Source: a bacterium (GTDB taxonomy: Bacteria; Nitrospirota; Thermodesulfovibrionia; Thermodesulfovibrionales; JdFR-85). From it: a stretch of 47,980 nucleotides of DNA. Positions 1,387-21,330 of this stretch are shown one piece after another. The stretch spans positions 1-47,980 of the forward strand of contig BTTF01000002.1 in the NCBI GenBank assembly GCA_036244995.1. The letters are read 5' to 3'. Both the position numbers and the translations under genes were made by a program. The notes beneath the pieces were generated by a model. It was not told where the DNA came from, did no database searches, and saw nothing but the letters and a program-made list of their open reading frames with translations. Positions within the stretch are counted from its first letter, which is position 1. Each line of letters opens with the position of its first letter.

Positions 1387-2478
1387 TCAGTTCCTGGACG
1401 TATGGCAAACGTTACACCCGTACAGGGCTGTCGGAAGAAAGGTGCTCTTGTAGTTCCACCGCAGCATTTTATAGTAGGGAGAACCATGAGCCCTGTGACA
1501 GGAGAGACAGATAACCCTGTCGGTTCCCGGGGTTACGGTACTCACAGCAGAAGTCAGCCCGTCAGTCAGTGATGCTGCCGGCCTTCCAACAGGCACTGTA
1601 GCCTTATAAATAGTCGACATGGAAGTAAACTCTCCCGAGTCCGGAATAATCACGTCTGTCGGGTGTCTCAGCCACGGTGAAGCTGAACCGATACCGCTGC
1701 TGCCCCCCAAATGAAACGTCGAATGACATTCAGAGCAGAGCTCACTGATTGTTCCCTTCATATTTGCCCATGAGTCAGTAGTACCCCTCGTGGCATAGGT
1801 TTCAGCCAGATACTCATTGTGGTCCGTAGCACTCACGGTAGCCTGCCAGTCACTGTCCTCTGCACCCTTTATCTTGTAGAGGAACCTGTAACTGGTAGCC
1901 ACAGTGGCCCCCTGCCCGGTCAGTGTAAAACCGGCGCTGTACTTGAGGATCGAGTCATCACCGTGATGCCCCCCGCTGACTGCGTCCCACTCATCAGAAA
2001 AATCCCTGTTGCCGTGACAACCGTTAGACCCGGCACATACCAGGCGGCCGGCAGTACTGAACCCTGTTGTTGAAGGATCATAGGCGCTGTTATATCCAGG
2101 CGGCGTATTGCCGAGTGTAACATCTTCCGAGATTATACCCTGAACATTATGTCCGCTCGAGTCTGCAAGTAAAACATAGGAAAAATTCCCTGCTGCAAGG
2201 TCTGTAGGGTCGGAATGGTAAACCTGGGGAATAGTGTTGAAGATATTAGTGCTGCGATTCTGTGCATGACAGCCTATGCAGTTACCACGGAGCAGTCTCT
2301 GGTTGGGCGTAGCAGAGTTGTCATAATTCATAGGAACTCCATCCTGGCTGTTGTGCATGGTGTGGCAGTTGCTGCATACGCCGCTAACCTCTGCCCTCAC
2401 TTCACCGAACAGCATCAGCACCAGCAAAAGAGTAAAGCAGATTAGTGTATGTATCCTTTTATTCATCAGGTTTTGCAA
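1387..2478 (-). CDS. OmcS-like hexaheme c-type cytochrome, paralog 1
   Basis: 363-aa ORF with a signal peptide ending VRA-EV. Five CxxCH motifs plus one CAGSNGCH. The motif series CSNCHTMHNS, GHNV, WLRHPT, CLSCHRAHGSP and C-terminal CNVCHT parallels OmcS as I remember it (CEGCHTMHNS, GHNI, LRHP, CLSCHRAHAS, CNKCHAKD). An alternative ATG start lies at 2466. Confidence 0.8.
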   Translation of the reverse strand: MQNLMNKRIHTLICFTLLLVLMLFGEVRAEVSGVCSNCHTMHNSQDGVPMNYDNSATPNQRLLRGNCIGCHAQNRSTNIFNTIPQVYHSDPTDLAAGNFSYVLLADSSGHNVQGIISEDVTLGNTPPGYNSAYDPSTTGFSTAGRLVCAGSNGCHGNRDFSDEWDAVSGGHHGDDSILKYSAGFTLTGQGATVATSYRFLYKIKGAEDSDWQATVSATDHNEYLAETYATRGTTDSWANMKGTISELCSECHSTFHLGGSSGIGSASPWLRHPTDVIIPDSGEFTSMSTIYKATVPVGRPAASLTDGLTSAVSTVTPGTDRVICLSCHRAHGSPYYKMLRWNYKSTFLPTALYGCNVCHTSRN

Positions 2479-2726: not shown

Positions 2727-4037
2727 TTATTTTTTATGACACTGGATACAGAGCTGTCTCTTTCTATCAAAGGCAAGCATAAAATCAGCCTTGGCTGAGT
2801 GCATACTATGACATGAAATGCAGGTAATCGGCTTACCGTTACGCGGGTCTATGACTCCGGCGCCTAAAGGATGTGTGATTTCATGCTGTGACTCATGGCA
2901 CCTGGAACAGGTTACAATATCATTTGTTTTGAAATAAAGAGGCTGATTCGAATGTCGCGGCACATGACATGCAAAACACTTCCTGTTCTTGACAGGAGCA
3001 CAACGGATGGACTTTAAAGTCTTCTCCATCAGAAGCGTCCTTTTCTCTGTCTTTTCATGGCAGCCGAGACATACGCCTGCTGCATTTACAGTCAGATTCT
3101 TCCTTTTCGATGCATGAGGATTATGACACATGGTGCAGACATTTTTTGCATCAGCGCCATGAACATCCGCCACCTTGAATGTTGCAAGGACATCTTTATG
3201 GCAACCAAGGCACAAGGCATCACCCTTTCTTTTAGTGGTTATCTTCCCATTGGCAACAAAAGGATTATGGCATTGTTCACAATCCTTTTTCAGAAAGGCT
3301 GTATGACCATAAGGACCAAGGAGACCTTTAGCATCAGAGGCGTGTCCTGAGTGACATTTGGTACAATTCATTGCTTTTGTGACATAAGTTATGGAGACCC
3401 CGCCCGCCTTGCACTGTGGGGCATGATGACAGCTTCGGCACAGCTTGGCAGGGGCGGCAAGCAACTGATTCTCCTCCGAAGATGCATGTGCATCATGGCA
3501 TGATGAACATTTCCCCTCCTTAAAAACTGCGTGTATTTCAGTCTTATCAAGTTGCCCCTTAAGGTCCTCGTGGCAATTCCAGCAGAGTTTCTTTTCTGTG
3601 CTGACTAAAAGGTATTTATTTTTCCCGCTATGTGGGGTGTGACAATCCGTACACACACCTTCTTTAAGGGCTCCGTGCAAACTGGACTTCCGTATAAGAT
3701 TCCTGATACCCTTATGACAACCCAGACAGACGGTATCAACCTTGGCTTTCATCAGGCCCTTCGTATCACTCACATGAGAATTATGACATGAAATGCACAT
3801 ACCCTGTTTAAACGGAAAATGGACATACTTGTCAGACAGGCCTTTCTTCAGCTTTACATGACACTGATAGCAAAGAGCCGGCACACTCGTTTTGAGGTCG
3901 GACCGGGCATAGGCATTGCTACCCAAGGCTGATAATATAAACGTTATCAGCATGAAACATGCAGCGATTAAGGTTAATGCTGAAAATCTTCTGTCATTTA
4001 TGACAGGCTTCACAGTCCCCCCTGGCAAATGGATCAT
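2727..4037 (-). CDS. 16-heme c-type cytochrome (c7-like bi-heme repeats)
   Basis: 436-aa ORF with a signal sequence (RRFSALTLIAACFMLITFILSALGSNAYA) and 16 CxxCH motifs, roughly one per 27 aa, often followed by xxH. Its start overlaps the upstream 26-heme gene by 44 nt. An alternative GTG start lies at 4013. Confidence 0.85.
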   Translation of the reverse strand: MIHLPGGTVKPVINDRRFSALTLIAACFMLITFILSALGSNAYARSDLKTSVPALCYQCHVKLKKGLSDKYVHFPFKQGMCISCHNSHVSDTKGLMKAKVDTVCLGCHKGIRNLIRKSSLHGALKEGVCTDCHTPHSGKNKYLLVSTEKKLCWNCHEDLKGQLDKTEIHAVFKEGKCSSCHDAHASSEENQLLAAPAKLCRSCHHAPQCKAGGVSITYVTKAMNCTKCHSGHASDAKGLLGPYGHTAFLKKDCEQCHNPFVANGKITTKRKGDALCLGCHKDVLATFKVADVHGADAKNVCTMCHNPHASKRKNLTVNAAGVCLGCHEKTEKRTLLMEKTLKSIRCAPVKNRKCFACHVPRHSNQPLYFKTNDIVTCSRCHESQHEITHPLGAGVIDPRNGKPITCISCHSMHSAKADFMLAFDRKRQLCIQCHKK

Positions 4038-5979
4038 GCTTTATTTTTTTAAGCAGCCCCGGTTTCTCTGTTACATGGGGTTCATGACAGCTCAGACACT
4101 GCCTGATTTTAGTTACGGACTTTCCGTCATGCACCTTCAACAATCTCTCCGTGTCTGTTGAATGGCACTTAAGACATAACGCCGGGTCCCTGGCATTCAA
4201 CAAGTCTTTTGATTCAGAGTAATGGGCAGTATGACAACTCAAACAGTCCCCTTTTTCCATATCTATATGCCCCTTTCTGACCCTGGTAGTCACTACACTT
4301 TCATGACATGAAAGACAGAGTTCCTCAGGGCGGCTTAAAAGTTGATACTCAACCTTGGTCCCATGTGGACTATGACAGGCCGTACATTTCCCTTCCTCCA
4401 CTGGCAGGTGCCTGTGTTTGCTGCCCTTTAGCGCGGCCTTTGTGGCCTTATGACACTTGTAACAAAGCTCCGCCATAGGCATGAGAGTGTTTGCCGTGTA
4501 ATCACTGGCATGTGGGGCATGACATGTCAGGCACTCCCGGTCCCTGAATGGAGGATGCATCTCCTTTGCTTTAACCTCCGGCAACATACTGTCATGACAA
4601 TTGAGGCAGAGCTGAGCCGGCGAACTGCTCAGCAAATTCCTGTAATCAGATGCATGCGCCTTATGGCAGGAAAGACATTCTCCTTTATTCACAGGTGTAT
4701 GAATATAGGTCTTAAAAAACTCCTTCTCCTCCTTTTTATGACAGCTATAGCATAACTGAGCCCGCACAGCCTTAAGCATATCAGGAGTATCGGTGCCGTG
4801 GGGATCATGGCATTTTGTGCATTGAAGCTCGGAGAACGGCTTATGCGTGGATATTTCTTTTAACTCCTTTTTCATACCGGTATGACATGTAAGGCATATC
4901 TGCCCTTCAGGTGCATTCAGATAAAAAGGATTTCCGGAGCCGTGCGGGTCGTGACAGACTGTGCAGCCTTCCTCCTTTTTTATGGGTGCATGCAAGTCAG
5001 TCACGTCAATCTTAGGCTTACCGGCATGACACTTTAAACAAAGAGCCTTTTCATCCATAAGGGTAAGCTTCGGATAATCCGAGGCATGCGGACTGTGACA
5101 GTCAAGACATTTCCCCGCGCCCGCGGGAGGATGCCTGTAAGCCGTTTTAAACGCCTTCTCTTCTTTCTTATGACAGATATAGCATAGTTTGGCATCCTGA
5201 GCAATAACACCAAGTGGATCCGGACCTCCCGCGGGTTTATGGCAGGAGCTGCATTGCCCGAGTTCCAGGGGAACATGGACCGATTTCCTGAGCAAGTTGT
5301 CATTTGTTGAACTGTGGGGGTTATGACAGCCTGTACATTTACCCTGTTGAACCGGATAATTCTTATGTGCCTTCCTGAAACTACCCGCCGCAGGGTCATG
5401 ACACGACCGGCAGAGATCCGCTTCATCCTTTATGAGATTATCCTTATATTTAGAGCCATGGGCTGCATGACATACAAGACATCCGTCTGAAAGGGGTTTA
5501 TGGCGATTAGCCCTCATAAAGGGAGCCCTGTCATGACAGGTAAAACACTGCTCACTGCCCTTGTTTTTCAGAAAAAACCTGTTTTCAGATGCATGGGGGT
5601 TATGGCAGGGGACACACTTGCCCTGCTTCAGGGCAGTATGCACATTCGGTAATTTAGCTATATCCGAGGCCATCTTCTGATGACAGGTAAAACAGAGCTT
5701 TCGCTCCTCCCTCTCCCTGAAGGATTTAACAGCGAGCCTTCCATGACGAAGGTGGCATGCCTCACAGTCCCGCTTACTTACCGGAGAATGCACATACTTC
5801 TTCTGAAATTCCTTCAGTTGCTCCTTGTGACAATCCAGGCAGGGTTTTGGTTCAAATCCCTTCCTTCTTGCCATATCTTCAGGAACACATGCATAGATGA
5901 GGCTTAAGATAAAAAACAGAAGGAGGACTTTTAAGATATTCTTTCCTTTGGGGTTAATCATTCCTCTCACAATTGCCAA
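3994..5979 (-). CDS. 26-heme c-type cytochrome
   Basis: 661-aa ORF with an N-terminal hydrophobic segment ending LIYAC, a possible lipobox. I counted 26 CxxCH motifs by hand, about one per 25 aa. The repeated pattern is H-x(8-12)-CxxCH-xPH. TTG start at 5979, alternative ATG at 5961. Confidence 0.85.
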   Translation of the reverse strand: MAIVRGMINPKGKNILKVLLLFFILSLIYACVPEDMARRKGFEPKPCLDCHKEQLKEFQKKYVHSPVSKRDCEACHLRHGRLAVKSFREREERKLCFTCHQKMASDIAKLPNVHTALKQGKCVPCHNPHASENRFFLKNKGSEQCFTCHDRAPFMRANRHKPLSDGCLVCHAAHGSKYKDNLIKDEADLCRSCHDPAAGSFRKAHKNYPVQQGKCTGCHNPHSSTNDNLLRKSVHVPLELGQCSSCHKPAGGPDPLGVIAQDAKLCYICHKKEEKAFKTAYRHPPAGAGKCLDCHSPHASDYPKLTLMDEKALCLKCHAGKPKIDVTDLHAPIKKEEGCTVCHDPHGSGNPFYLNAPEGQICLTCHTGMKKELKEISTHKPFSELQCTKCHDPHGTDTPDMLKAVRAQLCYSCHKKEEKEFFKTYIHTPVNKGECLSCHKAHASDYRNLLSSSPAQLCLNCHDSMLPEVKAKEMHPPFRDRECLTCHAPHASDYTANTLMPMAELCYKCHKATKAALKGSKHRHLPVEEGKCTACHSPHGTKVEYQLLSRPEELCLSCHESVVTTRVRKGHIDMEKGDCLSCHTAHYSESKDLLNARDPALCLKCHSTDTERLLKVHDGKSVTKIRQCLSCHEPHVTEKPGLLKKIKHDPFARGDCEACHK

Positions 5980-6053: not shown

Positions 6054-7805
6054 CTATTTCCGGAGCCTTTCCTCAAGTGACTTTACTGCCTTATCATATA
6101 TCTTTATACGCGCCTTTGCCTTCAACTGTGCTACAAACTTATCCCGGAGGGCATTAAACTGTTCTTTAAAACAGGCCTTGTAAACAGCATCTCTTACTTC
6201 TTCGAACCTCCCGATTTCACCCTTAAGCTTTCCCTGCAAACGGATTATTCTGTAAAATGAACTCACCTTGAATACCGGACTTATCTCTCCCGTCTTCAGT
6301 GCAGCCACAATCTCCCTTACAGGCCCTGGAAATTCCTGCATGGTAAGCCATCCAACCTCTCCACCTTTTGGACCTGCAGAATCAATCGACTTCTTCATAG
6401 CCAGCCATGAAAAATCCGTACCATCCTGCAGATTGCTCAACAGCTCCCTGGCCTCATCCATGGTCTTCACCGTAATCTGCCGGACTCTAAACCTGACAGG
6501 TTCGGCAAAATCTTCCCGGTGTTTCATATAGTAGTCTTTCAAGCTCTTATCTGAAACTTTGATCTTTGGGATAATTACTTTATTGATGAATGCCTGCTTT
6601 AATAACTGGTCCTCATAACGCTCTATCTTTTTCTTTAAATCCGGTGCAGTCTCGTAATGCCGGCTGAGTGCCTCATGGTCAACCACCTTACGGTCAATCC
6701 AGCTATTAAGGATATTTTCCTTTGCTTTCCCCTTGTAAGGCCTGGCCATGGCTGCAAACTCACCTGCAGTAAGGACCGAGCCATTCACCTCTGCCACTGC
6801 CCTTTTATCCTTTGACCAATCAGATGCCTTCTCATCCCCCTTATCCCGGCTTATAGCTGAAAGCAGCTCCTTATTAACCTTAACGGCAGCGTGTTCACGG
6901 AGATATTCCAGGTATTCATCGGCACGCTCTTTTTCCTTCTGTTTCCTGACAATCTTCTCTATCTCTTTTCGGACATTTTTAAGGTCTTCATCAGGCGCCT
7001 CTTTCCTGCTGACCAGCTTTACTATATAATATTTATCCCGTATTTTAAGAATATCACTCAACTCACCGGGGCTGAGACCGGCTATAGCTTCACCAATATA
7101 GGGTGACATGGACCTTCGTGTAAGGACAACATCCACTCCATTTTTCCCGGAATGATGAGTAGAATACTTCCGGGCAAGGTCACTGAAGTCGGCTCCCTTC
7201 TTTAGTTGTCCTGCTATATTACCGGCCTCTTCTTTTGAACTTACCTCAATAATGCCAAGCGAAAACCTCTCATAGTTCTTCTTGTAATAGCCTGGAATAT
7301 CCTTATCCGATATTGAGACCTTACGGGAAATCTCCTCGTCATAAAGCTTCACGACCGACTCCCTCAGAATATACGCCTTAACAGCCTGTTGTACCTGGGG
7401 GTCCTGCTCCATGCCCATACGGCGGGCTTCCTCAATAATCAGCATATCATCTATCAGCTTCTGCACATACTCCGACAGAATCAAGTTCCCTGCAGAGGAG
7501 AGGTCTTCCCTGCGATGGGTTATCTGCAGCGAATACTTCAAATCTTCTTCAGTAATGGGCTCGCCATCAACAACTGCCAATATCTTTTCCCTTGCCGTTA
7601 TCTCCCCCCTCTGCCGAAGGGAGACACAACCACCCACAAAAGCAAACAGCAGGAAGAAAACAACAACAGATAAAATTCCTGCATTTATAGAGGCTGCAGT
7701 CTTTCCCGTATTGGAAGAGCTGCCGGGCGAAATCCCTGACTGTTGACCGGTGACTATGGCCTGCCTTTGCGCCATACTGCTATCTCCGTTTTTTATCATT
7801 TTCAT
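6054..7805 (-). CDS. lipoprotein peptidyl-prolyl cis-trans isomerase, SurA/PpiD-like with two parvulin-type domains
   Basis: 583-aa ORF with a membrane or lipoprotein signal (FAFVGGC). It has a SurA-N-like helical region and two parvulin-like segments (FSLGIIEVSSKEEA...DKYYIVKL and FRVRQITVKT...SSFYRIIRL). Confidence 0.7.
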   Translation of the reverse strand: MKMIKNGDSSMAQRQAIVTGQQSGISPGSSSNTGKTAASINAGILSVVVFFLLFAFVGGCVSLRQRGEITAREKILAVVDGEPITEEDLKYSLQITHRREDLSSAGNLILSEYVQKLIDDMLIIEEARRMGMEQDPQVQQAVKAYILRESVVKLYDEEISRKVSISDKDIPGYYKKNYERFSLGIIEVSSKEEAGNIAGQLKKGADFSDLARKYSTHHSGKNGVDVVLTRRSMSPYIGEAIAGLSPGELSDILKIRDKYYIVKLVSRKEAPDEDLKNVRKEIEKIVRKQKEKERADEYLEYLREHAAVKVNKELLSAISRDKGDEKASDWSKDKRAVAEVNGSVLTAGEFAAMARPYKGKAKENILNSWIDRKVVDHEALSRHYETAPDLKKKIERYEDQLLKQAFINKVIIPKIKVSDKSLKDYYMKHREDFAEPVRFRVRQITVKTMDEARELLSNLQDGTDFSWLAMKKSIDSAGPKGGEVGWLTMQEFPGPVREIVAALKTGEISPVFKVSSFYRIIRLQGKLKGEIGRFEEVRDAVYKACFKEQFNALRDKFVAQLKAKARIKIYDKAVKSLEERLRK

Positions 7806-7815
7806 TACCTGTACG

Positions 7816-8985
7816 TTACCGTGACAAGGGCTCTCCTGTTTTTTTCACCTCGGAAGATGGCACTGAAACGGCAGGAACCGTTGCCCCGCATACTTTTTCA
7901 GCCCTTTTTACTAATTTTGAGACTATCCTGGAAGCCACTTTATCCACAGATCTTATCCTTCCCCAGTCAAGGACAATTATATCGTCATCACCCCTTAGTT
8001 GACAGCTCTCGCACCACAAGACCCTGTTTTTACGGGCATCTACTATTCTGGCGCTAATAGAGACCTCAGGTGGAGAGGAAGCATTTAATCCGTCAGAGTA
8101 AAGCTCCACAGTCCCGACTAAAAAACCATCCACCCCCAGGGAATCAGAAAGGGCCTTCATATCCCTGAAATCCAGTTCTCCCCTCTCCCTGACCCTTAAA
8201 TCCACTACCGATCTTCTGACTTCTCCGTATTCCACCGGTTCAAAAACAGGATTCTTAAATAATTCCACTAAAAACATGTAAGTAGCTATCATACCTGCAT
8301 CTCTGACTCCACTGTTATTCCGAAACGGCATCACAGCAATTCTGTACGTATCTTTTGTCTCTTTTGTCTCTTTTCGGGACGGCATGACGGTGAAAGAGGC
8401 AAGCAATCTGTCCGCAACCCTGGGGAGCAGGTTATCCATGTTTTTTATTCTGCGCAAACCGAGGATTGCCGTAAAATCATCTCCTGTAGCAGAGGCATTA
8501 TCAGCCCAGAGGATAAGGCCGGTGGATGAATCAATCAGGCGGGCTGAAAAACCAACCCCTGGATTTTCTCCTCGTGAAAACAGGTTAACAGAACCGAGCA
8601 AAACAGCCTTTACCTTCAATTCCGCTCCTATCTTCCTGGCCATATCCCTTGAAATGTATCCGGTAGCCCTGATCCTCTCTTTAAGCAGAAACCTGTTGAG
8701 GCTATCCTCATCCACTACGTCAAACCCCTTGCCCTCCAGCCGGGTTCTCAACACCGGCATAACGTATCTCAGGGCATCCCTGTCCTCGCTTAGATTCACA
8801 AAAGGAAAGAGGGCTATTCTTTCCTTCAAAACTCTCCCCTCTCCACGGGACGATTGGACTGCATAGCAAACATTGGTAATAAAGAAGAGCGAGAAGATAA
8901 CGATTAGAAAAGAAGACGCCAATCGGTCAGGGCTACGAAGCACGTTTCGTCTCACGGCCACGTTGTTCAGTTCTTTTTTAGTCAT
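7816..8985 (-). CDS. secreted protein with two tandem CsgG/TolB-N/LpoB-like alpha/beta modules
   Basis: 389-aa ORF with an N-terminal hydrophobic signal. It has two internal repeats beginning RIALFPFVNLS and RIAVMPFRNNSG. Both are similar to the single module in the next two genes. Confidence 0.6.
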   Translation of the reverse strand: MTKKELNNVAVRRNVLRSPDRLASSFLIVIFSLFFITNVCYAVQSSRGEGRVLKERIALFPFVNLSEDRDALRYVMPVLRTRLEGKGFDVVDEDSLNRFLLKERIRATGYISRDMARKIGAELKVKAVLLGSVNLFSRGENPGVGFSARLIDSSTGLILWADNASATGDDFTAILGLRRIKNMDNLLPRVADRLLASFTVMPSRKETKETKDTYRIAVMPFRNNSGVRDAGMIATYMFLVELFKNPVFEPVEYGEVRRSVVDLRVRERGELDFRDMKALSDSLGVDGFLVGTVELYSDGLNASSPPEVSISARIVDARKNRVLWCESCQLRGDDDIIVLDWGRIRSVDKVASRIVSKLVKRAEKVCGATVPAVSVPSSEVKKTGEPLSR

Positions 8986-9032: not shown

Positions 9033-9638
9033 TCAGTATTTAGCAAGTGTCCGGATAGCATCTTTTACTACCCTCAACAGTGTCTCACTCATAGTCTCTG
9101 TCCTTGCACCAAAATGTCTGGCCATAAACCCGCCCCCAACACCCGTGCTTGTAACCGACCATATAATGCTCCCTGAACCTGTATCTGCCATCATAAGGGT
9201 AATGGTTACATTTGGTGCGGAAATACTTCCCATCCTGACCATTCCGAACTGCTCAACAGAGCCGAAAATAAGCGCCTGCACGCCAAGGGCAGTCCCCAAA
9301 GCCTTTATCTGTTCAGTGTTCAGGGATGAGACAGACTTAATCCCCAGACGGTCAATGGCAGCCTTTACCTCTCCGGGAATCACTACATCAACAAGACCCG
9401 AGGCCAGCAGTTCACTGATAACCACCTGCCTTACAGCCTCAGCGGCAAATCTCTCACTGGTCAGATTATTCAAAGGCAATACCGCTACCCGTTTTATAAA
9501 ACCGAAATCCACATCCTGACGGACATGAAATGAAGGCATGCTGCTACGACATCCTGCGCCAAGGAGCAATAGACAGAGCATACCTGTCAGGGCATATTTC
9601 TTCAGCAAGTCCATATCGTTTCTCCTTTTATTCTTCAT
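9033..9638 (-). CDS. lipoprotein with a CsgG/TolB-N/DUF799-like module
   Basis: 201-aa ORF with lipobox LLGAGC. The module reads VAVLPLNNLT...ALIFGSVEQFG...TITLMMADTGSGSIIWS. Confidence 0.65.
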   Translation of the reverse strand: MKNKRRNDMDLLKKYALTGMLCLLLLGAGCRSSMPSFHVRQDVDFGFIKRVAVLPLNNLTSERFAAEAVRQVVISELLASGLVDVVIPGEVKAAIDRLGIKSVSSLNTEQIKALGTALGVQALIFGSVEQFGMVRMGSISAPNVTITLMMADTGSGSIIWSVTSTGVGGGFMARHFGARTETMSETLLRVVKDAIRTLAKY

Positions 9639-9686: not shown

Positions 9687-10283
9687 CTAAAATAATGCAT
9701 CAATGGTTTCTTTTACAACCTTCCCGGCAGTTTCACTCAATGTAATGCCCTCTGTACCAAAGTGTCTGGTCCAGAAACCGGGACCGCCTGCTGTGTTCCA
9801 GGCAGACCATATAATGTTGCCGGTGGACGTATCAAGCATCATCAGGTGGATTGATACCTCCGGATAAGAGGTTGTAATCCCCCGGCTTATCCCAAAGGCC
9901 CCAACCGAGCCCATCATTACTGCCTTTACGTTCAGTCTTTCCCCTATCTTCCGTATATCCTCAATCGTTATACCTCCAAGGGATCTGATCTTTAATTCCC
10001 TCAGTACCCTTGTTACCTCACCAGGCTCGATAACATCGACTCCCCTGGTAAGGAGCTCCGATATAACCATCCCCCGGATCTTTTCACCGGCATATTCATC
10101 CGTGGTAAGGGTTTCCAGCGGCAACACCGCTATCTTCCTTATACTGCGAATATCAACATCCGGCCGGATATATTGTCTCGGGACAGCACAGCCCCACATG
10201 AAAATCAGTAAAAGAGACAGGGCCGGAAGCAGAGGCCCGGGAAGCATCCTGTTTTGCTTTTTTTCCTTAACTCTATCAATCAT
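9687..10283 (-). CDS. lipoprotein with a CsgG/TolB-N/DUF799-like module (paralog of 9033..9638)
   Basis: 198-aa ORF with lipobox FMWGC. The module reads IAVLPLETLT...AVMMGSVGAFG...SIHLMMLDTSTGNIIWS and is clearly alignable to the previous gene. Confidence 0.65.
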   Translation of the reverse strand: MIDRVKEKKQNRMLPGPLLPALSLLLIFMWGCAVPRQYIRPDVDIRSIRKIAVLPLETLTTDEYAGEKIRGMVISELLTRGVDVIEPGEVTRVLRELKIRSLGGITIEDIRKIGERLNVKAVMMGSVGAFGISRGITTSYPEVSIHLMMLDTSTGNIIWSAWNTAGGPGFWTRHFGTEGITLSETAGKVVKETIDALF

Positions 10284-10315
10284 ATTCTCATTCCAACCTG
10301 TTCGAGTTGTCTTTT

Positions 10316-10418
10316 CCTGTCATTCCGGCTCCTGTTCTCCGTAGTATTACGAAGGATGAATGTCCGGAATCGTTCTTTAAGAAGGATTCCGGACTCGCTT
10401 CACTTGCGGGAATGACAA
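10316..10418. repeat. REP-like nested palindromic intergenic element
   Basis: The outer inverted repeat is tgtcattcc...ggaatgaca. The inner near-perfect 34-nt palindrome is gtccggaatcgttctt-ta-aagaaggattccggac. The element lies between the lipoprotein gene start and the barrel gene stop. Confidence 0.6.
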
Positions 10419-10462
10419 ATGATTGCACTTTATATAATAACACTAATTATAATTCAGACATG

Positions 10463-12736
10463 TCAGAATCTGCAATTCAAATTCGCACCAATCATATAGG
10501 TTTCCGTCTTTTTCTCCCTGACACTCTGTGTATAGTTATACGTAAGGCGGATATCAATAAACTTTGTAATATACCATAACCCGTAGCCACTGAGCGAGTC
10601 GTCAGTTGAAGAGTCCGGTTCAGAACGGGCATGCTGATAGTTTAAGTTCACTTTAAGGACAGGCACGGGAAGCCAATCAATTAAAACTCCCTTGGAAGTC
10701 GTTGTATTGCCGTCAACATCCGAAACCCTGAAACTTCCGGAAAGATTGATAAACCGGCCCGGTCGGTATGTAATTATTGTGCCACCCTCATTTGAATCCG
10801 AAGATGTAATGTCTGACGATTGCCGGTTAAAGCCATATATGAGATTTGCCGTCAGCTTCCGGGTAAGAAATGCATCAAGTGAGCCACGGATAAAACGGGA
10901 AATAAGGTGAGAACCTGATGTATAGGATTTCGAGTCCGTGTATCCAATGTCGGTAATCATGTTGACGCCCCTGTAAAGTCTCGAACCTGCACTTAACAGC
11001 AATGAATTATTCAGGGACTGTTTCTCACCAAAGCTGAATCTGTCACTCCTGATTAATGCAAGGGTTGTATCGAGGGTTGGCAAAGGAGTAGAGTTAAAGG
11101 AGAGGGAATAAATATTGGAGCTGATATCCGTCACCTCTTTATTGTCAAATGCCTCGTTTCTCTGAAAACGGAAAGTAGTAGTAAGCAATCTGTGGGTTAC
11201 CCATGCTGAGGTAATACTGTAGGTCCTTGTTATATTACTAATCAGCCCTTCCGCCTCACCTGCTGTGGATTTACTGAAAACATTTACAAAAATACCGGCT
11301 ATAGAGTCCGGAAGGGACACAGTGTTCTGGTCTGTCCTGTCAATATAGCAATTAAAGAGAAGGCTTAACCTTTTTACAGGCATCAGCTTCACACTGAGGT
11401 TTAACCCCTGAGTAAAAACCCTCGTCACCTTCGTAACCTTGCCTGTGTCGGGGACCAAGTCCATACCGTAAGCCTCGATTTCTGTTACCAGAACATCACT
11501 TAAGCCGGACTTGACCTGATTGATCACCTTGAAATAGCGTGCATTCTGACCGGCAGAGAACCTTATCTCATACCGGTATACACTATTAACTATATCCGTA
11601 GATACCACCACACTCTGGATAGCTACTTCCGTCCAGTCCCCGCTATTATAATCACTCCGGTAGGCCCTCCAGTTATACGGAGTTATAAGGCCGATATCAG
11701 CACTGACATCTTTATCTACATAAATATATAATCTGTCTACCTCCTCCGATGATGACAAAACCTCTATACCTATATTATTGTACACCTGGCCGTTACTACC
11801 GAGGTTGATTCCGGTTGACGTCTGATAATCCTTGTCAATCAGGGACGGCTTGTTATTCAATATATCCACTTCGCTTTTATTTGCATCTATGGCATAGAGC
11901 CCACTAAGCGGTGTTCGCTCGAAAAGCACGTTGCCCGTCTGGGTCACAAACTGCTGCCTCCTGTTCCGCACATAGTTCCCCTGATAGACTGCAGACACCC
12001 TGGTCCTGCCCCGCTGGAAGGAACGGGAGTAACCGATTCTGTACAGGCCGTTAAAATTGTCGCCGATTGATTTAGCCAGTATATCAGTCGGTGCCTCGTC
12101 CACCGTATGCCTGTAAGTAAGGCTGTAGGAGAGGTCTAAATCCCTGAACGAGTATTGATAAATGGAACTTCCGGAATATCCGGTATATCCGGTACTGGTT
12201 TTGTCTGTTTCATTAACAAGGAAGTGTGTGTAGTCCCTCTTTTTGTCAAACTGCAGGAAGAGGGAAGGCAACTCCAGGGGTTTTACATTAAGACGGGAAT
12301 AATAATATTCAGAAGTTTCCCTGCTGTTGTCTCTCAGGTGTGCAGTTGACCACTGCTCCTGACGGCGATAACCTGTACTCAGGTCATAGACGGAGTTCCG
12401 GAGGAACAGGTCTATTGCCGGCTCAACCGCCCTCTTGTAAGCGGTGGTAGTCACACCGGCAGGGTCTGTAAGGTCGGAATCCAGCAAACCTGACCTGAAA
12501 TAGAGTTGATAGGAAAGCATCGGCGTGATTGATTTATCCAGACGCAGATAGAAATTTCGATAAAATGTCTTGTTGACTGATATTTGTTTGTCATCCTCAA
12601 ACTGCTTCGTAGTATTATGATTCAACTCTGCCCATCCCTTGAGGCCTTCGGCAAAAGCAGGGCCGCCAAGACAGGCACTCAGTAATGCTATTGCGATAAT
12701 TTTCCATAATATCTTCCGCATAAGCTCGTCAGTCAA
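10463..12736 (-). CDS. large outer-membrane beta-barrel protein with an inserted discoidin (F5/8 type C)-like domain
   Basis: 757-aa ORF with a signal peptide (IIAIALLSACLGGPAFA-EG). The sequence alternates in an aromatic-rich beta-strand pattern and ends in a C-terminal Phe (NLNCRF). Residues about 285-424 end in ARYFKV...VTEIEAYG, a typical discoidin C-terminus. Alternative ATG start at 12721. Confidence 0.7.
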   Translation of the reverse strand: MTDELMRKILWKIIAIALLSACLGGPAFAEGLKGWAELNHNTTKQFEDDKQISVNKTFYRNFYLRLDKSITPMLSYQLYFRSGLLDSDLTDPAGVTTTAYKRAVEPAIDLFLRNSVYDLSTGYRRQEQWSTAHLRDNSRETSEYYYSRLNVKPLELPSLFLQFDKKRDYTHFLVNETDKTSTGYTGYSGSSIYQYSFRDLDLSYSLTYRHTVDEAPTDILAKSIGDNFNGLYRIGYSRSFQRGRTRVSAVYQGNYVRNRRQQFVTQTGNVLFERTPLSGLYAIDANKSEVDILNNKPSLIDKDYQTSTGINLGSNGQVYNNIGIEVLSSSEEVDRLYIYVDKDVSADIGLITPYNWRAYRSDYNSGDWTEVAIQSVVVSTDIVNSVYRYEIRFSAGQNARYFKVINQVKSGLSDVLVTEIEAYGMDLVPDTGKVTKVTRVFTQGLNLSVKLMPVKRLSLLFNCYIDRTDQNTVSLPDSIAGIFVNVFSKSTAGEAEGLISNITRTYSITSAWVTHRLLTTTFRFQRNEAFDNKEVTDISSNIYSLSFNSTPLPTLDTTLALIRSDRFSFGEKQSLNNSLLLSAGSRLYRGVNMITDIGYTDSKSYTSGSHLISRFIRGSLDAFLTRKLTANLIYGFNRQSSDITSSDSNEGGTIITYRPGRFINLSGSFRVSDVDGNTTTSKGVLIDWLPVPVLKVNLNYQHARSEPDSSTDDSLSGYGLWYITKFIDIRLTYNYTQSVREKKTETYMIGANLNCRF

Positions 12737-12884
12737 TAGTCTTTGACAATAATCGCCGACCTGATGTTTGCCATTGACTATCGTTCAGTATGGATTCAAA
12801 CCCAAACCTGGGGTTAACACTCTAATTCAATCGGTTTCTCTATCTGCATTCTCTGTGCTCTCTGGTTAATCAAATTTTTTATTC

Positions 12885-14480
12885 CTAATACGGAAACATT
12901 GCTATGCCATAGGGATTTTTACCCACAGGGATAACCCTTTCTACTTCTCTTGCAGTTCTATCTACTACAGAGACATTATCGGAACCCCGGTTAACTACAT
13001 AGAGATTTCTGACCTCAGGGTCCATAATCATGGACCTCGGAGAAGTTCCTACAGGTATGGTACCTATTACCAGGGGCATTACCGTACCCACAGTATAGTA
13101 ATCCTCCAAAAGGGGTCTGATAATCATTATCTCACCAGGAACCTCCCTCAACAGATAAAGCCTGTCAAAGGACGGGTCAACAACAACTCCTGTGACAGAG
13201 GTACCCACATCACTGATATCGCTGACAGCTCCCTTCTCATCCCCTTTAATAACCTTTATGATATCTATGACCGAGAGCCTGTCGGAACCATAATTAGCCA
13301 CATAGACCTTTCCCCTCTGATAGTCTATAGCGAGCGCCACCGGGCTCCATTCTACACTTAACCTGGCAACCTCTTCAAGCCTGCCGCTCTGCAGGTCCAT
13401 CCTCAGTACCGAGACATCCCTGGAATCCTTATTAACTACATACACATTAAAATATCTTTCACGGTAATTTCTTAAGATATTAACATCCTCAAGACTGAGA
13501 AACCGCGACGCCGTGACAGTCTCTGCCGGTGGGTCTACTGCCACTGCTATCGGACCATTCCCGACATCTACCTTATCTATCTCCTGATAGGTTGAAGCAT
13601 CAACAACGGATACCGTATCAGAGGCATAATCGGTCACGAAGATAAGGTCCTCCCCTGAGGGTCCCCTGGCTACCGCTATACCCTCCGGGGCACTACCAAA
13701 CCGGATCGGTATCTCCTGTTCCACTTTATTAGTGGTAGGATCAATCACTGAAATGCTGTTAGAGCCTGAGTTTGCCACATAAACCCTCAAACGGTCCCTC
13801 CTCAAACCTGCAGCAATACCTCTGGGTCTCCTCCCCACCCTTACAGTTGCTACAACCTCACCTAATTGTCTGTTAATCACGGAGACATTATTCGAATCCT
13901 CATTGGTAACATAAACAAGAAGACTGCTGAGCTCCGGGACCTGCCCCTTAACAGCAAAAACAGGCTTAAACAGGTATTTATCGGCAACAGAAGCATCTGC
14001 ATCCCAAGTCAGGAACAATGATGTGTCCTGGTCTTTATATACGGTAATATTTACGGCTACCTCTATTCCGCCGGAAGGCAAGGCTAAACGTGCCATCCTG
14101 CCTTTTCTCCTGATCAATGCCCGTTTAACAACAAGCCGGAGTTTTTTATATCTGCCCTCCGGTAGACTTTTTTCAGCTAAAAGTATCTGACGGCCCTTCA
14201 CGGCAATGGAATTTATATTCAGAGGGGTGCTCGTTATCTCTCTATAGGTACCGTCTTCCGCCATAATATCGATTGCGGTCAGATCAAATGAAATATCAAC
14301 AGAAGTATCATCTGCACCCTTCAAAAAAAGGTCAATCTGTCCCCGGGAATGCCCGGAGACATTCCGCTGTCCCTTAATGGCCGTGCATCCCGTTAAAAGG
14401 AAAAACGAGCAAAAGACCAGGAACATGAAACTCCTCGCTAAAACTGCTGTATCTTTATAAAGATGTCCATTGTTCGACAT
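12885..14480 (-). CDS. lipoprotein with a DUF4382-like N-domain and a YVTN-family beta-propeller
   Basis: Lipobox LLTGC. It carries repeated YVTN motifs: VYVANSGSNSISVID, IFVTDYASDTVSVVD, VYVVNKDSRDVSVL, VYVANYGSDRLSVID and LYVVNRGSDNVSVVD. I chose the ATG at 14480 (GGGAG upstream, 32-aa signal). The ORF is open up to 14555. Confidence 0.75.
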   Translation of the reverse strand: MSNNGHLYKDTAVLARSFMFLVFCSFFLLTGCTAIKGQRNVSGHSRGQIDLFLKGADDTSVDISFDLTAIDIMAEDGTYREITSTPLNINSIAVKGRQILLAEKSLPEGRYKKLRLVVKRALIRRKGRMARLALPSGGIEVAVNITVYKDQDTSLFLTWDADASVADKYLFKPVFAVKGQVPELSSLLVYVTNEDSNNVSVINRQLGEVVATVRVGRRPRGIAAGLRRDRLRVYVANSGSNSISVIDPTTNKVEQEIPIRFGSAPEGIAVARGPSGEDLIFVTDYASDTVSVVDASTYQEIDKVDVGNGPIAVAVDPPAETVTASRFLSLEDVNILRNYRERYFNVYVVNKDSRDVSVLRMDLQSGRLEEVARLSVEWSPVALAIDYQRGKVYVANYGSDRLSVIDIIKVIKGDEKGAVSDISDVGTSVTGVVVDPSFDRLYLLREVPGEIMIIRPLLEDYYTVGTVMPLVIGTIPVGTSPRSMIMDPEVRNLYVVNRGSDNVSVVDRTAREVERVIPVGKNPYGIAMFPY

Positions 14481-14588
14481 AAACTCCCGGGTTTCGACAA
14501 AATGTTTTTTTGTTATATTTGCAATCAACCTAATTTGCTGATAATTGCTGTACATCTTTCGCCTTATCTTAGTTTTTTTCAGACCTCC

Positions 14589-15524
14589 TTACTCCTTAGG
14601 CTGATACACTTCCACCCTGTTATTAAAGGTATCGGCAATCAGTATCCTGCCTGTTGAGTCGATTGATATATCCCTGGGGTACTGAAACCATCCTGCTGAC
14701 AGGCCAAGACCCCCAAACTCGAACAGATAGTTACCGTTCCTGTCATACGCAGAGACAGTATGACGCATATAATCCACCACATACATCCTTCCGTTTCGAT
14801 TATCTACTCCAACAGCCATCGGACGGCTCAGCTTGCCTGTACTCCCTCCCTTACGGCCAAATTTGAAAAGAAACTTCCTGTTCTTATCATAGACATATAT
14901 ATGTCCCATTTCCTCGCTGACAAGATATATCCTGCCTGCCTTATCCAGGGTCACATCGTTTAATTTCACCTTTCTCCCCTCTTCTTCAGGTGATATTATC
15001 TCCAGGAGACGGCCTTGATTACTCAGGACCAGAACACCGGGGAAATAGGATCCCGCCACATAGATATTACCCGCTTTATCCATGGCCAGGCGATACGGGT
15101 TAAACGACCCGGATCCCTCAAAACCCTTCAGATAAATATCACGCACCCACTTAAGACATGCGTTGAAAACAGAAATTCTGTGTCTGGGGTTATCTTTTGT
15201 GGCAGACTGAACAACGTAAAGATTACCTTCAGCATCCAGAGTCAACCCCTGGGGTGATTCAATGCCGTTTCTTTTATCAAGGGTAAACAGGGGGAAAAAA
15301 TCCGATGTATATATGATAATCCTGCTTTTCCCATCAATAACGTAAACCTCTTTACTGACCGGATCCGCCCACACAAAGGAAGGGAAAAACAACCCGTCTT
15401 CTTCTGCTTCCACTATGCTGTATGCATGGACTACAGGAACATCCTGCAACTGGGCCTCTATCTTGCGCTGGACGAGAAGAAAGGGCATTACAAAGGAAAT
15501 AATTATAACAAGGATACGGAACAT
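14589..15524 (-). CDS. NHL-repeat beta-propeller protein, secreted
   Basis: 311-aa ORF with AGGAGG upstream of the ATG and a signal peptide. NHL-type repeats include GNLYVVQS, GNIYVAGS, GRIYLVSEEMGHIYVYD, GRMYVVDYMRHTVSAYD and GRILIADTFNNRVEVY. Confidence 0.75.
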   Translation of the reverse strand: MFRILVIIISFVMPFLLVQRKIEAQLQDVPVVHAYSIVEAEEDGLFFPSFVWADPVSKEVYVIDGKSRIIIYTSDFFPLFTLDKRNGIESPQGLTLDAEGNLYVVQSATKDNPRHRISVFNACLKWVRDIYLKGFEGSGSFNPYRLAMDKAGNIYVAGSYFPGVLVLSNQGRLLEIISPEEEGRKVKLNDVTLDKAGRIYLVSEEMGHIYVYDKNRKFLFKFGRKGGSTGKLSRPMAVGVDNRNGRMYVVDYMRHTVSAYDRNGNYLFEFGGLGLSAGWFQYPRDISIDSTGRILIADTFNNRVEVYQPKE

Positions 15525-15633
15525 AAACCTCCTGAATCAAATCTCAATCATACAATTAAGATACGGCATTGACATAATAAAGTTTTTAGAACCTTTCCCC
15601 CCATGCCAACTCTTTCAATATCAGGGTATCCAT

Positions 15634-15669
15634 AAAAAACATGGGTATCGTAAGATACCCATGTTTTTT
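15634..15669 (-). terminator. strong (bidirectional) intrinsic terminator after OmcS-like paralog 2
   Basis: The sequence aaaaaacatgggtatc-gtaa-gatacccatgtttttt gives a perfect 11-bp GC-containing stem flanked by A6 and T6. It lies 40 nt downstream of the stop at 15710. Confidence 0.8.
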
Positions 15670-15709
15670 AAATCCAGCCGTTAGCCCGAAAGTTTCTCTT
15701 CAATTATAT

Positions 15710-16792
15710 TTAGTAGGCATCTTTCTGTGTATGACACCTCAAACAACCTGTACCGGAGCTCAGACTCGTCTGATAGCTGAACCGCAGACTATCGGGATAA
15801 GGAGAACCATGGGGCCTGTGACAGGAAAGGCATATGACCCTGTCGGTGCCGGCGGTAACAGTCCCTATTGCTGCAGTCAACCCGTCAGCCAGTGATGCCG
15901 CAGGCCTTCCAACCGGAGTCTCATCACTATACGTAGTTGATACAGAAGCAAACTCCCCTGAGGCCGGGATTACCACATCTGTCGGGTGTCTCAGCCACGG
16001 TGATGCAGAACCGATACCGCTGGTTCCACCTATATGGAACGTGGAATGACATTCAGAGCACAGCTCACTGATTGTTCCCTTCATATTTGCCCATGTGTCA
16101 GTAGTACCCCTCGTGGCATAGGTTTCAGCCAGATACTCGTTGTGGTCCGTAGCAGTCACGGTATTCTGCCAGTCACTGTCCTCTGCACCCTTTATCTTGT
16201 AGAGAAACCTGTAACTGGTTGCCACGCTGGCCCCCTGCCCGGTCAATGTAAAACCGCTGCCGTACTTGAGGATCGAGTCATCACCGTGATGTCCCCCGCT
16301 GACTGCGGTCCACTGATCAGATGAATTCCTGTTGCCGTGACAACCGTTAGACCCGGCGCACACCAGACGGCTGGCAGTATTAAACCCTGTTGTTGAGGGG
16401 TCATAGGCGCTGTTATATCCAGGCGGAGTATTGCCGAGTGCGGCATCTGCCGAGGTCACTATACCCTCAACATTATGACCATAGGAGTCCCCGTTGTTCA
16501 CAACATACGAAAAATTCCCTCCCGCTAGGTCTGTAGAGGCAGAATGGTAGACCTGGGGTATGGAGTTGACGATATTGCTGGAGGTGTTCTGTGCATGACA
16601 GCCTACACAGCTACCCCGGAGCAGTTTCCCGTTAGGAGTAGTCGAGTGATCATACGTCATAGGAGCGCCATCCTGGCTGTTATGCATGGTGTGACAGCTT
16701 GAACAAACACCGGATACTTTGGCATCAGCATAAGAATAAATAAAAATTGCAGACAGAAATACTAAAAGCATTGTCATCAATGTTTTTTTCAT
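15710..16792 (-). CDS. OmcS-like hexaheme c-type cytochrome, paralog 2
   Basis: 360-aa ORF with GGGAGG 9 nt upstream of the ATG and a signal peptide ending YADA-KV. It has the same motif series as paralog 1 (CSSCHTMHNS, GHNV, CAGSNGCH, WLRHPT, CLSCHRPHGSP, CLRCHT). The central 460 nt are about 92% identical to paralog 1. Confidence 0.8.
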   Translation of the reverse strand: MKKTLMTMLLVFLSAIFIYSYADAKVSGVCSSCHTMHNSQDGAPMTYDHSTTPNGKLLRGSCVGCHAQNTSSNIVNSIPQVYHSASTDLAGGNFSYVVNNGDSYGHNVEGIVTSADAALGNTPPGYNSAYDPSTTGFNTASRLVCAGSNGCHGNRNSSDQWTAVSGGHHGDDSILKYGSGFTLTGQGASVATSYRFLYKIKGAEDSDWQNTVTATDHNEYLAETYATRGTTDTWANMKGTISELCSECHSTFHIGGTSGIGSASPWLRHPTDVVIPASGEFASVSTTYSDETPVGRPAASLADGLTAAIGTVTAGTDRVICLSCHRPHGSPYPDSLRFSYQTSLSSGTGCLRCHTQKDAY

Positions 16793-17005: not shown

Positions 17006-17035
17006 AATATAACACATACAAGGTTTTTTTGTCAA
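17006..17035 (-). promoter_or_regulatory. sigma-70 promoter for OmcS-like paralog 2 (TTGACA, 18-nt spacer, TATATT)
   Basis: The minus strand reads TTGACA-18 nt-TATATT. The predicted leader to the ATG at 16792 is about 210 nt. Confidence 0.5.
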
Positions 17036-17188: not shown

Positions 17189-18280
17189 CTATTGCCCCTT
17201 CTGCGTATGACACGTAAGACATCCGTCACCACGGCTCAACATATTACTGCTGTAATCCCACCTCAACATATCCTGATAGGGACTCGCATGTGCCCTGTGA
17301 CACGAGGGACACATGATTATACTATCCATATCCACAATATCTTCTCTGCCTGTAGGGTTTTTATAGGCAACAGGCGCCTGGAGGCTATAGATAGTATAGC
17401 CCTGAAACTCAGAGCCTGCATACCCCCCGCGTACACTGCTGAAGGCAATGTCAGTGGGGTGCCTGAGCCAGACAGTCTCACCAACCTCTGTCTCACCACC
17501 AAGATCCGGATTTGGATGAAACTTGCCATGGCATTCACCACAAAGGTAACTTATGGTATCCATAGTGCTGTGACTGGTGTCACCCTTATAGCCGTTATGG
17601 TCATCAGTGGTGGCCTGATATTCCCAGTCCTTCTGTTCCTTGCCTTTTATCCCGTAAAGAAAGCGATAACTCCTGCCCACAGTTGAACCGTCAATCACAC
17701 TGTCATCCGCATGATGTGCTCCGTAAATGGACTTGAACGGCTTCTCTACAGTCCTGTTTCCATGACAGCCCCACGTGCCCGCACAGGTAAGCTGCTGTTG
17801 CTGTGGCCAGTATGAAGGCCCGATGCCTCCAGGAATCACAACGTTTCCCATAAACCCGGGTGGTGCATCCATGGGTGGAGGCTCCTGAAGTGAAATCCCC
17901 AAAACGTTGTGCCCCTTTGAATAATCAGGGTTAAAGTCGTCCGAGACATAATAAAAGTTTCCAGCAGCAAGGTCTCCGTTATCCATGTTATGGATTACCT
18001 GCGGGATTCTTGTCTTCCCCATAATTATAATATTCCTGGTACCGGAAGGATCCTGGGCATGACAACCGAGACAACCACCCTTTGTCAGGACAGGATTGGG
18101 TTTAACGGCGTGCATGGTGTGGCAATTCTTGCACTTCCCCTTCACCCTGGCATCAATATTTGAGGGAAAAGACAGGACAAGGAACATAGAGAACAGAGTA
18201 AAAAACACGGAGCAAAGAGCATGGAAATGCTTCCACTTAAAACCTCGCTCCATGCCCTTTGCTCTCAGCGCTTTGCCCAT
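17189..18280 (-). CDS. OmcS-like hexaheme c-type cytochrome, paralog 3 (divergent)
   Basis: The motifs are CKNCHTMH, CLGCH, GHNV, CAGTWGCH, CGECH, WLRHPT, CPSCHRAHASP and CLTCHT. The ORF is open to 18316 (TTG). I chose the ATG at 18280, 2 nt after the upstream stop. The ATG at 18253 is also plausible. Confidence 0.75.
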   Translation of the reverse strand: MGKALRAKGMERGFKWKHFHALCSVFFTLFSMFLVLSFPSNIDARVKGKCKNCHTMHAVKPNPVLTKGGCLGCHAQDPSGTRNIIIMGKTRIPQVIHNMDNGDLAAGNFYYVSDDFNPDYSKGHNVLGISLQEPPPMDAPPGFMGNVVIPGGIGPSYWPQQQQLTCAGTWGCHGNRTVEKPFKSIYGAHHADDSVIDGSTVGRSYRFLYGIKGKEQKDWEYQATTDDHNGYKGDTSHSTMDTISYLCGECHGKFHPNPDLGGETEVGETVWLRHPTDIAFSSVRGGYAGSEFQGYTIYSLQAPVAYKNPTGREDIVDMDSIIMCPSCHRAHASPYQDMLRWDYSSNMLSRGDGCLTCHTQKGQ

Positions 18281-21300: not shown

Positions 21301-21330
21301 ATTATACGAAAGACAGCTTTCATTCGTCAA
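21301..21330 (-). promoter_or_regulatory. sigma-70 promoter (TTGACG, 18-nt spacer, TATAAT) heading the cytochrome locus
   Basis: The minus strand reads TTGACG-aatgaaagctgtctttcg-TATAAT, 40 nt downstream of the yraN stop. It is about 370 nt upstream of the 19-heme cytochrome ATG. Confidence 0.5.

Follow-up and report, generated by a model that had tools for sequence, protein, structure and literature searches.

A conserved OmcS-family cytochrome without the N-terminal hook histidine, a candidate terminal nanowire subunit in an osc-type gene cluster of Nitrospirota

How an extracellular cytochrome nanowire starts and ends, how it is anchored to the cell and how it takes up and releases electrons is an acknowledged open question, and the capping and anchoring of the filament ends of OmcS, the nanowire cytochrome of Geobacter sulfurreducens (GSU2504; PDB 6EF8, 6NEF), are described as unresolved (PMC7096707, PMC12307469). 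A locus of the Nitrospirota (order Thermodesulfovibrionales) raises this question in a concrete form. The stretch of DNA analysed here, 47,980 nucleotides (nt) of contig BTTF01000002.1 (assembly GCA_036244995.1, positions 1 to 47,980; hereafter the window), carries on its minus strand, at 7-20924, a block of genes that includes four OmcS-like hexahaem cytochromes. In three of them the first haem motif is extended by a histidine, here called the hook, which we take to be the counterpart of the residue that ligates a haem of the neighbouring subunit in OmcS filaments. The fourth lacks it, and the original prediction, made from the sequence of the window, was that this paralog may be a non-polymerising, capping or nucleating variant. 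We find that the hook-less paralog represents a conserved subfamily with its own place in the gene cluster, and we tentatively propose that it forms one end of a filament.

All genes and sites of the block named below lie on the minus strand. The first haem motif reads CSNCHTMH (2353-2376) in paralog 1 (1387-2466), CSSCHTMH (16682-16705) in paralog 2 (15710-16792) and CKNCHTMH (18110-18133) in paralog 3 (17189-18280). A six-frame scan found exactly these three CxxCHTMH motifs in the window. At the same place paralog 4 (18283-19341) has CEVCHSLY (19219-19242), that is, a tyrosine at the hook position, followed by a conserved P-G-M; on both points the original prediction was correct. Identity to paralog 1 is 74% for paralog 2, 45% for paralog 3 and 47% for paralog 4, and the six haem sites, five CxxCH and one Cx5CH, are in register across all four proteins. 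The Cx5CH motif is the third site in each of them (CAGSNGCH in paralog 1, residues C144-H151, window 2005-2028) and is invariant in 228 aligned homologs of paralogs 1, 2 and 4. In profile alignments the histidine of this site falls on OmcS His147 and not on the OmcS motif histidine His144. A likely signal-peptide cleavage site (A-x-A, then x-V-x-G-x-C), assigned from the sequence and not computed by a predictor, is present in all four paralogs and places the first cysteine at about mature residue 6. The hook motif thus stands roughly where it had been placed, at the start of the mature chain, but not at the very first residue. The CxxCHxxH arrangement as such occurs in 36 of the 93 CxxCH motifs of the window and is therefore common in multihaem proteins. 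Because it is so widespread, the informative feature is the specific N-terminal CHTMHNS block.

By sequence and profile comparison, all four paralogs are distant homologs of OmcS, which bears out its choice as a template. The single sequence of paralog 1 matched OmcS (6ef8/6nef) with an expectation value (E) of 2e-5, residues 30-346 aligning with 8-354, and this was its sole significant PDB match. A profile built from 111 homologs of paralog 1 matched OmcS with E 5.9e-16; other PDB matches were marginal (E 0.003-0.007). Paralog 4 as a single sequence reached only E 0.09, whereas a profile of 103 of its homologs gave E 8e-11, again with OmcS as the sole significant PDB match. In the alignment, CSNCHTMHNS of paralog 1 lies on CEGCHTMHNS of OmcS, with the histidine of TMH on OmcS His16, and the CHTMHNS block is identical in OmcS and the proteins related to paralog 1 despite an overall identity of about 27%. 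The OmcS sequence that we used consisted of residues 8-354 taken from the PDB alignment together with residues 1-7 and 355-407 added from outside it; tblastn matched 1-407 in many loci. AlphaFold2 monomer models, computed without haems, had a mean predicted local distance difference test score (pLDDT) of 84 and a predicted template modelling score (pTM) of 0.81 for paralog 1, and 73 and 0.74 for paralog 4. Searched with Foldseek against the PDB, both models gave 6ef8_A as the sole significant match (probability 1.00, E 4e-5 to 9e-5), with template modelling (TM) scores of only 0.41-0.44. Pfam and NCBIfam hold no OmcS-specific model; the matches found there were generic ones to paired-CXXCH, c7 or MtrC-like families, mostly below the curated cut-off. 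No protein of the window matched a PDB entry of OmcZ or OmcE.

In OmcS, all 12 axial haem ligands are histidines, 11 of which come from the subunit itself and one, at haem 5, from the adjacent subunit (Filman et al., PMC6584659; PMC7096707). We collected 110 OmcS-clade hexahaem proteins from 78 genomic loci, a set from which G. sulfurreducens itself is absent, so that its OmcT and OscC were judged via orthologs in related genomes. These proteins have exactly six invariant histidines outside the haem motifs, at OmcS positions 2, 16, 110, 147, 257 and 335; the one at position 16 is present in 109 of the 110. We take the inter-subunit ligand of haem 5 to be His16, as the original prediction did. 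The cross-ligation that it described agrees with the published structures; the residue number, which did not appear in the papers that we consulted, goes back to Wang et al. (2019), where His16 is reported to pair with His332. Six invariant histidines are just the number of distal ligands needed, which lends independent support to His16 and fits the count of 11 plus 1 (PMC6584659). By inference, His16, three residues past the proximal histidine of the first haem, would face the preceding subunit. His63 and His247 of OmcS, which are absent in paralog 4, were considered as lost ligands and ruled out, since they are conserved in only 75% and 69% of the OmcS clade and hence are not axial ligands.

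The homologs of the four paralogs fall into three classes, which we call A (paralogs 1 and 2), B (paralog 4) and C (paralog 3). The hook histidine is present in all 112 full-length homologs of paralog 1, with T-M-H-N-S-Q conserved at 90-100%. Together with its presence in the OmcS clade (109/110), we judge this conservation of a histidine at +3 to be far beyond chance. C-type proteins have the hook C[KR][DN]CH[ST]MH, with the histidine in 97 of 107. Of 116 B-type homologs, 89 have Tyr, 25 have Phe and 2 have Leu at the hook position, and the next three residues are mostly Pro (93%), Gly (93%) and Met (83%), which gives the motif CxxCH-x-[LIV]-[YF]-P-G-M. B and C are each monophyletic in 40 of 40 neighbour-joining bootstraps; A is unresolved as a clade. 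Proteins of one class share a mean identity of 0.65 (B), 0.69 (C) or 0.57 (A); the mean is about 0.4 between classes and about 0.26 to the OmcS clade. As its phylogeny and motif conservation indicate, the B-type is an old, monophyletic subfamily of which hook loss is the defining feature and not a sporadic event. The histidine is thus indeed absent from paralog 4, but its loss is no one-off: it is common to a clade that has a conserved motif in its place. Likewise, the grouping of paralogs 1 to 3 is sound in that all carry the hook, but paralog 3 belongs to a separate third class. We considered whether paralog 4 is a pseudogene or decaying and rejected this, as its open reading frame is intact and the B clade, at 65% self-identity, is more conserved than the A-type clade.

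B has lost the donor histidine and kept the acceptor site. No relocated hook histidine was found in B: only 10 of the 116 proteins have any histidine between haem motifs 1 and 2, and these are at scattered positions, so the donor has not simply moved. All six haem sites, haem 5 included, are retained in B together with the equivalents of OmcS His110, His257 and His335, and so are two features specific to this family, an invariant HH pair and the histidine of DHNEY. In paralog 1 the latter are H167 and H168 (GGHHGDD) and H216 (TDHNEY), which are invariant in A and B, present in paralog 3 and without an OmcS counterpart. At least one of the three is surplus to six distal ligands and might belong to a metal site or reflect another arrangement of the ligands.

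The classes are also set apart by their genes. The window and six other loci (L079 to L084) all have the order B, C, one to three A genes, an NHL-repeat propeller and a YncE-type propeller, after which come a protein of 750-840 residues and CsgG/LpoB-like lipoproteins. B and C are single-copy in each of the seven, and in five of these loci the two genes either overlap or are separated by 2-5 nt. Small genes stand between B and C in L083 (11161-11532, a 23S_rRNA_IVP four-helix-bundle protein) and L084 (9258-9635, DUF559). The B/C junction of the window reads TAG-CA-ATG, the start codon of paralog 3 lying 2 nt past the stop of paralog 4, and C is apparently translationally coupled to B. Roughly 130-900 nt separate C from the first A gene. 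We consider it highly probable that there is a conserved subfamily of hook-less proteins within the OmcS family, whose genes keep a fixed B-C-A order in an osc-type cluster.

A large multihaem cytochrome (15-25 haems) is encoded just upstream of B in four of the seven loci. In the window this is a 19-haem paired-CXXCH cytochrome (19461-20924) directly upstream of paralog 4, and a promoter-like site (21301-21330) precedes its gene. Another promoter-like site, at 17006-17035, lies before paralog 2, in the 396 nt that separate it from paralog 3; it consists of TTGACA, an 18-nt spacer and TG-TATATT (a near-consensus extended -10) and is identified by consensus match only, with 11 of 12 positions matching. 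Beginning 40 nt past the stop codon of paralog 2 is a perfect 17-bp, A/U-flanked hairpin that ends in a U-run (15633-15670), which resembles an intrinsic terminator; it was missed by a simple terminator scan and found by folding the region. Comparable hairpins occur 3' of A-type genes in three of the six other loci (L079, L081, L083), and none was found 3' of a B or C gene in the window or those six loci. The two elements that bracket paralog 2 suggest that it is a separately and strongly expressed monocistronic gene. An A gene with its own promoter-like site and terminator, together with B and C genes that lack a terminator, is what one would expect if A is the major structural subunit and B and C are minor ones made in stoichiometric amounts.

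The remaining genes of the block are those of an osc cluster, the set that accompanies omcS and is reported to take part in OmcS folding, secretion and morphology; gene names and roles are from PMC13194489 and PMC12977616. In the direction of transcription, paralog 2 is followed by the NHL-repeat beta-propeller (14589-15524), the YncE/lactonase-type beta-propeller with DUF4382 (12885-14555), homologs of which lie directly downstream of true OmcS genes, and a 757-residue protein that has no Pfam match and is conserved in osc-type clusters (10463-12736), which, at a guess, is an outer-membrane component. Next come three CsgG/LpoB/GNA1162-like proteins, probably lipoproteins (9687-10283, 9033-9638 and 7816-8985). 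These precede a SurA-like PpiC-type peptidyl-prolyl isomerase (6054-7805), a 26-haem cytochrome (3994-5979), an OscJ-like 16-haem cytochrome (2727-4037), paralog 1 and, as the last gene, an octahaem cytochrome with N-terminal CAHCHEQH (7-1329). The 26-haem protein shares 37-41% identity with an OscI/GSU2495-like protein, likewise of 26 haems, whose gene lies some 7-9 kb downstream of true OmcS genes (PMC13194489). For each accessory protein, tblastn found homologs in the same order downstream of OmcS-clade genes in 25-63 of the 78 loci, and the Pfam domains fit. Since every accessory protein has such homologs, the block at 7-20924 is a divergent version of the osc-type (OmcS-companion) cytochrome-nanowire cluster from a hydrothermal-vent Nitrospirota. 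The paralogs are most similar to proteins from metagenome-assembled genomes of Nitrospirota, Thermodesulfovibrionales and Thermodesulfobacteriota, a protein labelled MNBD_NITROSPIRAE03 from a hydrothermal vent metagenome is 99% identical to paralog 3, and the cluster sequence is present in vent metagenome runs.

What could a subunit with an acceptor haem and no donor histidine do? Following the OmcS precedent, we infer that the hook reaches between subunits in this family as well and that its members form filaments. A, being multi-copy and having its own promoter-like site and terminator, is taken to be the polymerising major subunit. As in OmcS, its N-terminal histidine would supply the missing ligand of haem 5 in the subunit before it. 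B, with a haem-5 site and without the hook, could accept a histidine from a neighbour but could not donate one, and a subunit of this kind is possible only at the haem-1 end of a filament. The result would be a polar hetero-oligomer B <- C <- A <- A ..., where each arrow stands for a histidine that one subunit contributes to haem 5 of the one before it. B might be the first subunit of this filament, a nucleator or tip, and each new subunit would then place its hook in the vacant haem-5 site of the last one added. Alternatively B might be the base, which would bind the co-transcribed 19-haem cytochrome through its remodelled, conserved haem-1 face and receive electrons from it. The genomic context favours a specialised minor or terminal role for paralog 4. 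That B is the polar terminal subunit, tip or base, of a B-C-A(n) filament is a tentative reading of the sequences, for which our doubt slightly outweighs our belief. The fuller scheme, in which Nitrospirota nanowires would be polar hetero-oligomers held together by donor-ligand exchange, with B as start or end, C as adaptor, A as rod and the Y/F-P-G-M haem-1 end as the site of electron entry or exit, is doubtful in our estimation.

A number of findings weigh against a terminal role for B. The position of OmcS Arg333 is Arg in 110 of 111 OmcS-clade proteins, in 105 of 107 C-type and in 82 of 112 A-type proteins. In B it is Val, Met or Phe in 105 of 120 (Val in paralog 4, on the acceptor side), so haem 5 of B may not work as it does in OmcS. 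The CxxCH of haem 5 itself is kept in B. Ten of the 107 C-type proteins, the L079 copy among them, lack the hook histidine, which makes a strict B <- C link impossible in those genomes. A-type genes without a nearby B or C occur in two further loci (L085 and L086), so B is not a general requirement. A-type proteins have eight invariant non-motif histidines where six are needed, and with this surplus an intramolecular ligand of haem 5 is possible. Structure prediction covered monomers, and three small metatranscriptomes of the same vent sample yielded no contig from the cluster.

Several of these points fit the main rival, according to which B works outside the filament, as a monomeric or C-bound cytochrome of the periplasm or the cell surface. 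There it would be either a relay between the 19-haem cytochrome and the A wire or a terminal reductase with an open or weakly ligated distal site at haem 5. Donor hook and acceptor residue are both changed in B, the replacement motif is itself conserved, as if for a new function rather than through simple loss, the gene is putatively co-transcribed with that of a large periplasmic-type multihaem protein, and some C-type partners lack the histidine too. We nevertheless think such a role rather unlikely, as B has kept all six haem sites of the OmcS type, haem 5 among them, has no extra conserved histidine to complete haem 5, and in every case heads the nanowire block, its gene closely coupled to that of a paralog with the hook. 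A more radical alternative is that the TMH histidine is an intramolecular or structural residue throughout the Nitrospirota family; the paralogs would then be ordinary monomeric hexahaem cytochromes, and the change in paralog 4 would be uninformative about polymerisation. Paired-CXXCH cytochromes often have CxxCHxxH as an intramolecular arrangement, the surplus of histidines in A leaves room for such a ligand, the family is distant from the OmcS clade in identity and in its haem and histidine positions (see below), and the TM-scores are low. The seven residues CHTMHNS, however, are the same as in OmcS and nearly invariant in A, they lie about six residues from the mature N-terminus beside the first haem, with no earlier haem in the chain, and a complete osc-type assembly gene set in OmcS order accompanies them. 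This alternative thus appears improbable to us. We give even less credence to the view that B polymerises anyway, in a filament of its own or within the A filament, through protein contacts or with Tyr41 or Met44 as ligand. OmcZ filaments do form without inter-subunit haem ligation (PMC9473688), and Tyr and Met are conserved near the former hook position; yet Tyr is replaced by Phe in 25 of 116 proteins and Met by Leu, Val or Ile in about 15%, so neither is an obligatory ligand, and B is single-copy without a terminator of its own, unlike a major subunit. With Phe, Leu and Val variants this frequent, Tyr41 or Met44 is an unlikely replacement ligand in any setting. The reading that we prefer, with B at one end of a filament, is set against known systems in what follows.

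The closest of these is OmcS itself, with which the paralogs share homologous sequence, six haem sites in the same order, the CHTMHNS block, the three histidine equivalents named above, a CLSCHRAH haem-5 motif, the osc gene set that follows and, tentatively, the predicted fold. They differ in being about 25-27% identical and some 50 residues shorter, in having Cx5CH rather than CxxCH at the third site, and in lacking OmcS His2 and His147, for which the invariant HH pair and the DHNEY histidine are candidate replacements. OmcS filaments are homopolymeric, whereas the genes of the window define three fixed classes, one of them without the donor histidine. To our knowledge, all cytochrome filaments solved so far are homopolymers. 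OmcT and OscC resemble our paralogs as OmcS-family hexahaem proteins encoded in or near a nanowire operon; OscC-type genes always occur with the eight-gene osc block, and the function of the OmcS paralogs is described as unknown (PMC12977616). In the 78 OmcS-clade loci, all but one of the hexahaem paralogs next to OmcS keep CxxCHx[MIV]H, and none has the B-type motif. Since the genes in OscC position all retain the hook, B was ruled out as an ortholog of Geobacter OscC (GSU2501). The one hexahaem paralog without the hook is a 393-residue protein with CSGCHLDR (L014, 585-1766), and near OmcS-clade genes there are also seven-haem proteins that lack the hook histidine and have CTECHKGK (L004, 3014-4255; L055, 1972-3201). 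Hook-less relatives may thus have arisen more than once.

Chaperone-usher pili offer a functional analogy. In their assembly, with FimH or PapG at the tip, FimG and FimF as adaptors and FimA as rod, an N-terminal element of one subunit completes its neighbour, the tip subunit lacks that element, and minor subunits are single-copy with the major one in excess. There is no homology, and the element donated is a beta-strand in pili, as opposed to a haem axial ligand here. OmcZ and OmcE are also extracellular polymerised multihaem cytochromes, and OmcE too has an inter-subunit histidine; their folds are unrelated, and OmcZ does without inter-subunit ligation (PMC9473688). A literature search for caps or minor subunits of nanowires returned only papers on actin and tubulin.

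Some further observations concern neighbouring or related genes. In L086, four tandem hook-bearing A-like paralogs (10001-14666; CS[DN]CHTMH[NY]SQ), with no B or C nearby, face an osc-like cluster, and in one of the four the residue that corresponds to OmcS Arg333 is Tyr. For the octahaem protein at 7-1329 no relative was found in the PDB. In its family (487 representatives, E<=1e-3) haem motif 1 has the form CxxCHEQH[AG]S, and the +3 residue is His in 84 of 98 proteins and Phe in 10; the protein may thus be a further cytochrome with a hook, either a filament subunit or an adaptor, from a family that has hook-less variants as well. The remainder of the window (21781-47386) carries housekeeping genes, named from reading the translations of open reading frames. 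They encode histidinol dehydrogenase, ribosomal protein S1, IspH and cytidylate kinase; enzymes of aromatic amino-acid biosynthesis, namely 5-enolpyruvylshikimate-3-phosphate (EPSP) synthase, prephenate dehydrogenase, 3-deoxy-D-arabino-heptulosonate 7-phosphate (DAHP) synthase, an aminotransferase and chorismate mutase/prephenate dehydratase; and a flagellar rod, ring and hook-associated block of flgF, flgG, flgA, flgH, flgI, flgK and flgL.

For the family at large, the three classes provide a rule by which OmcS-like genes from metagenomes can be sorted: CHTMHNSQ marks A, CH[ST]MH marks C and CHx[LIV][YF]PGM marks B, likely rod, adaptor and terminal subunit, respectively. As far as genes can tell, the cluster adds Thermodesulfovibrionia-like Nitrospirota of hydrothermal vents to the bacteria with nanowire-type extracellular electron transfer. 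A single-copy OmcS-family subunit that has the acceptor haem, lacks the donor histidine and is encoded beside assembly genes is a concrete and testable candidate for a nanowire terminus. If B does occupy that place, a tip or anchor would be defined for the first time in a cytochrome nanowire, and the assembly logic of these filaments would be convergent with that of chaperone-usher pili.

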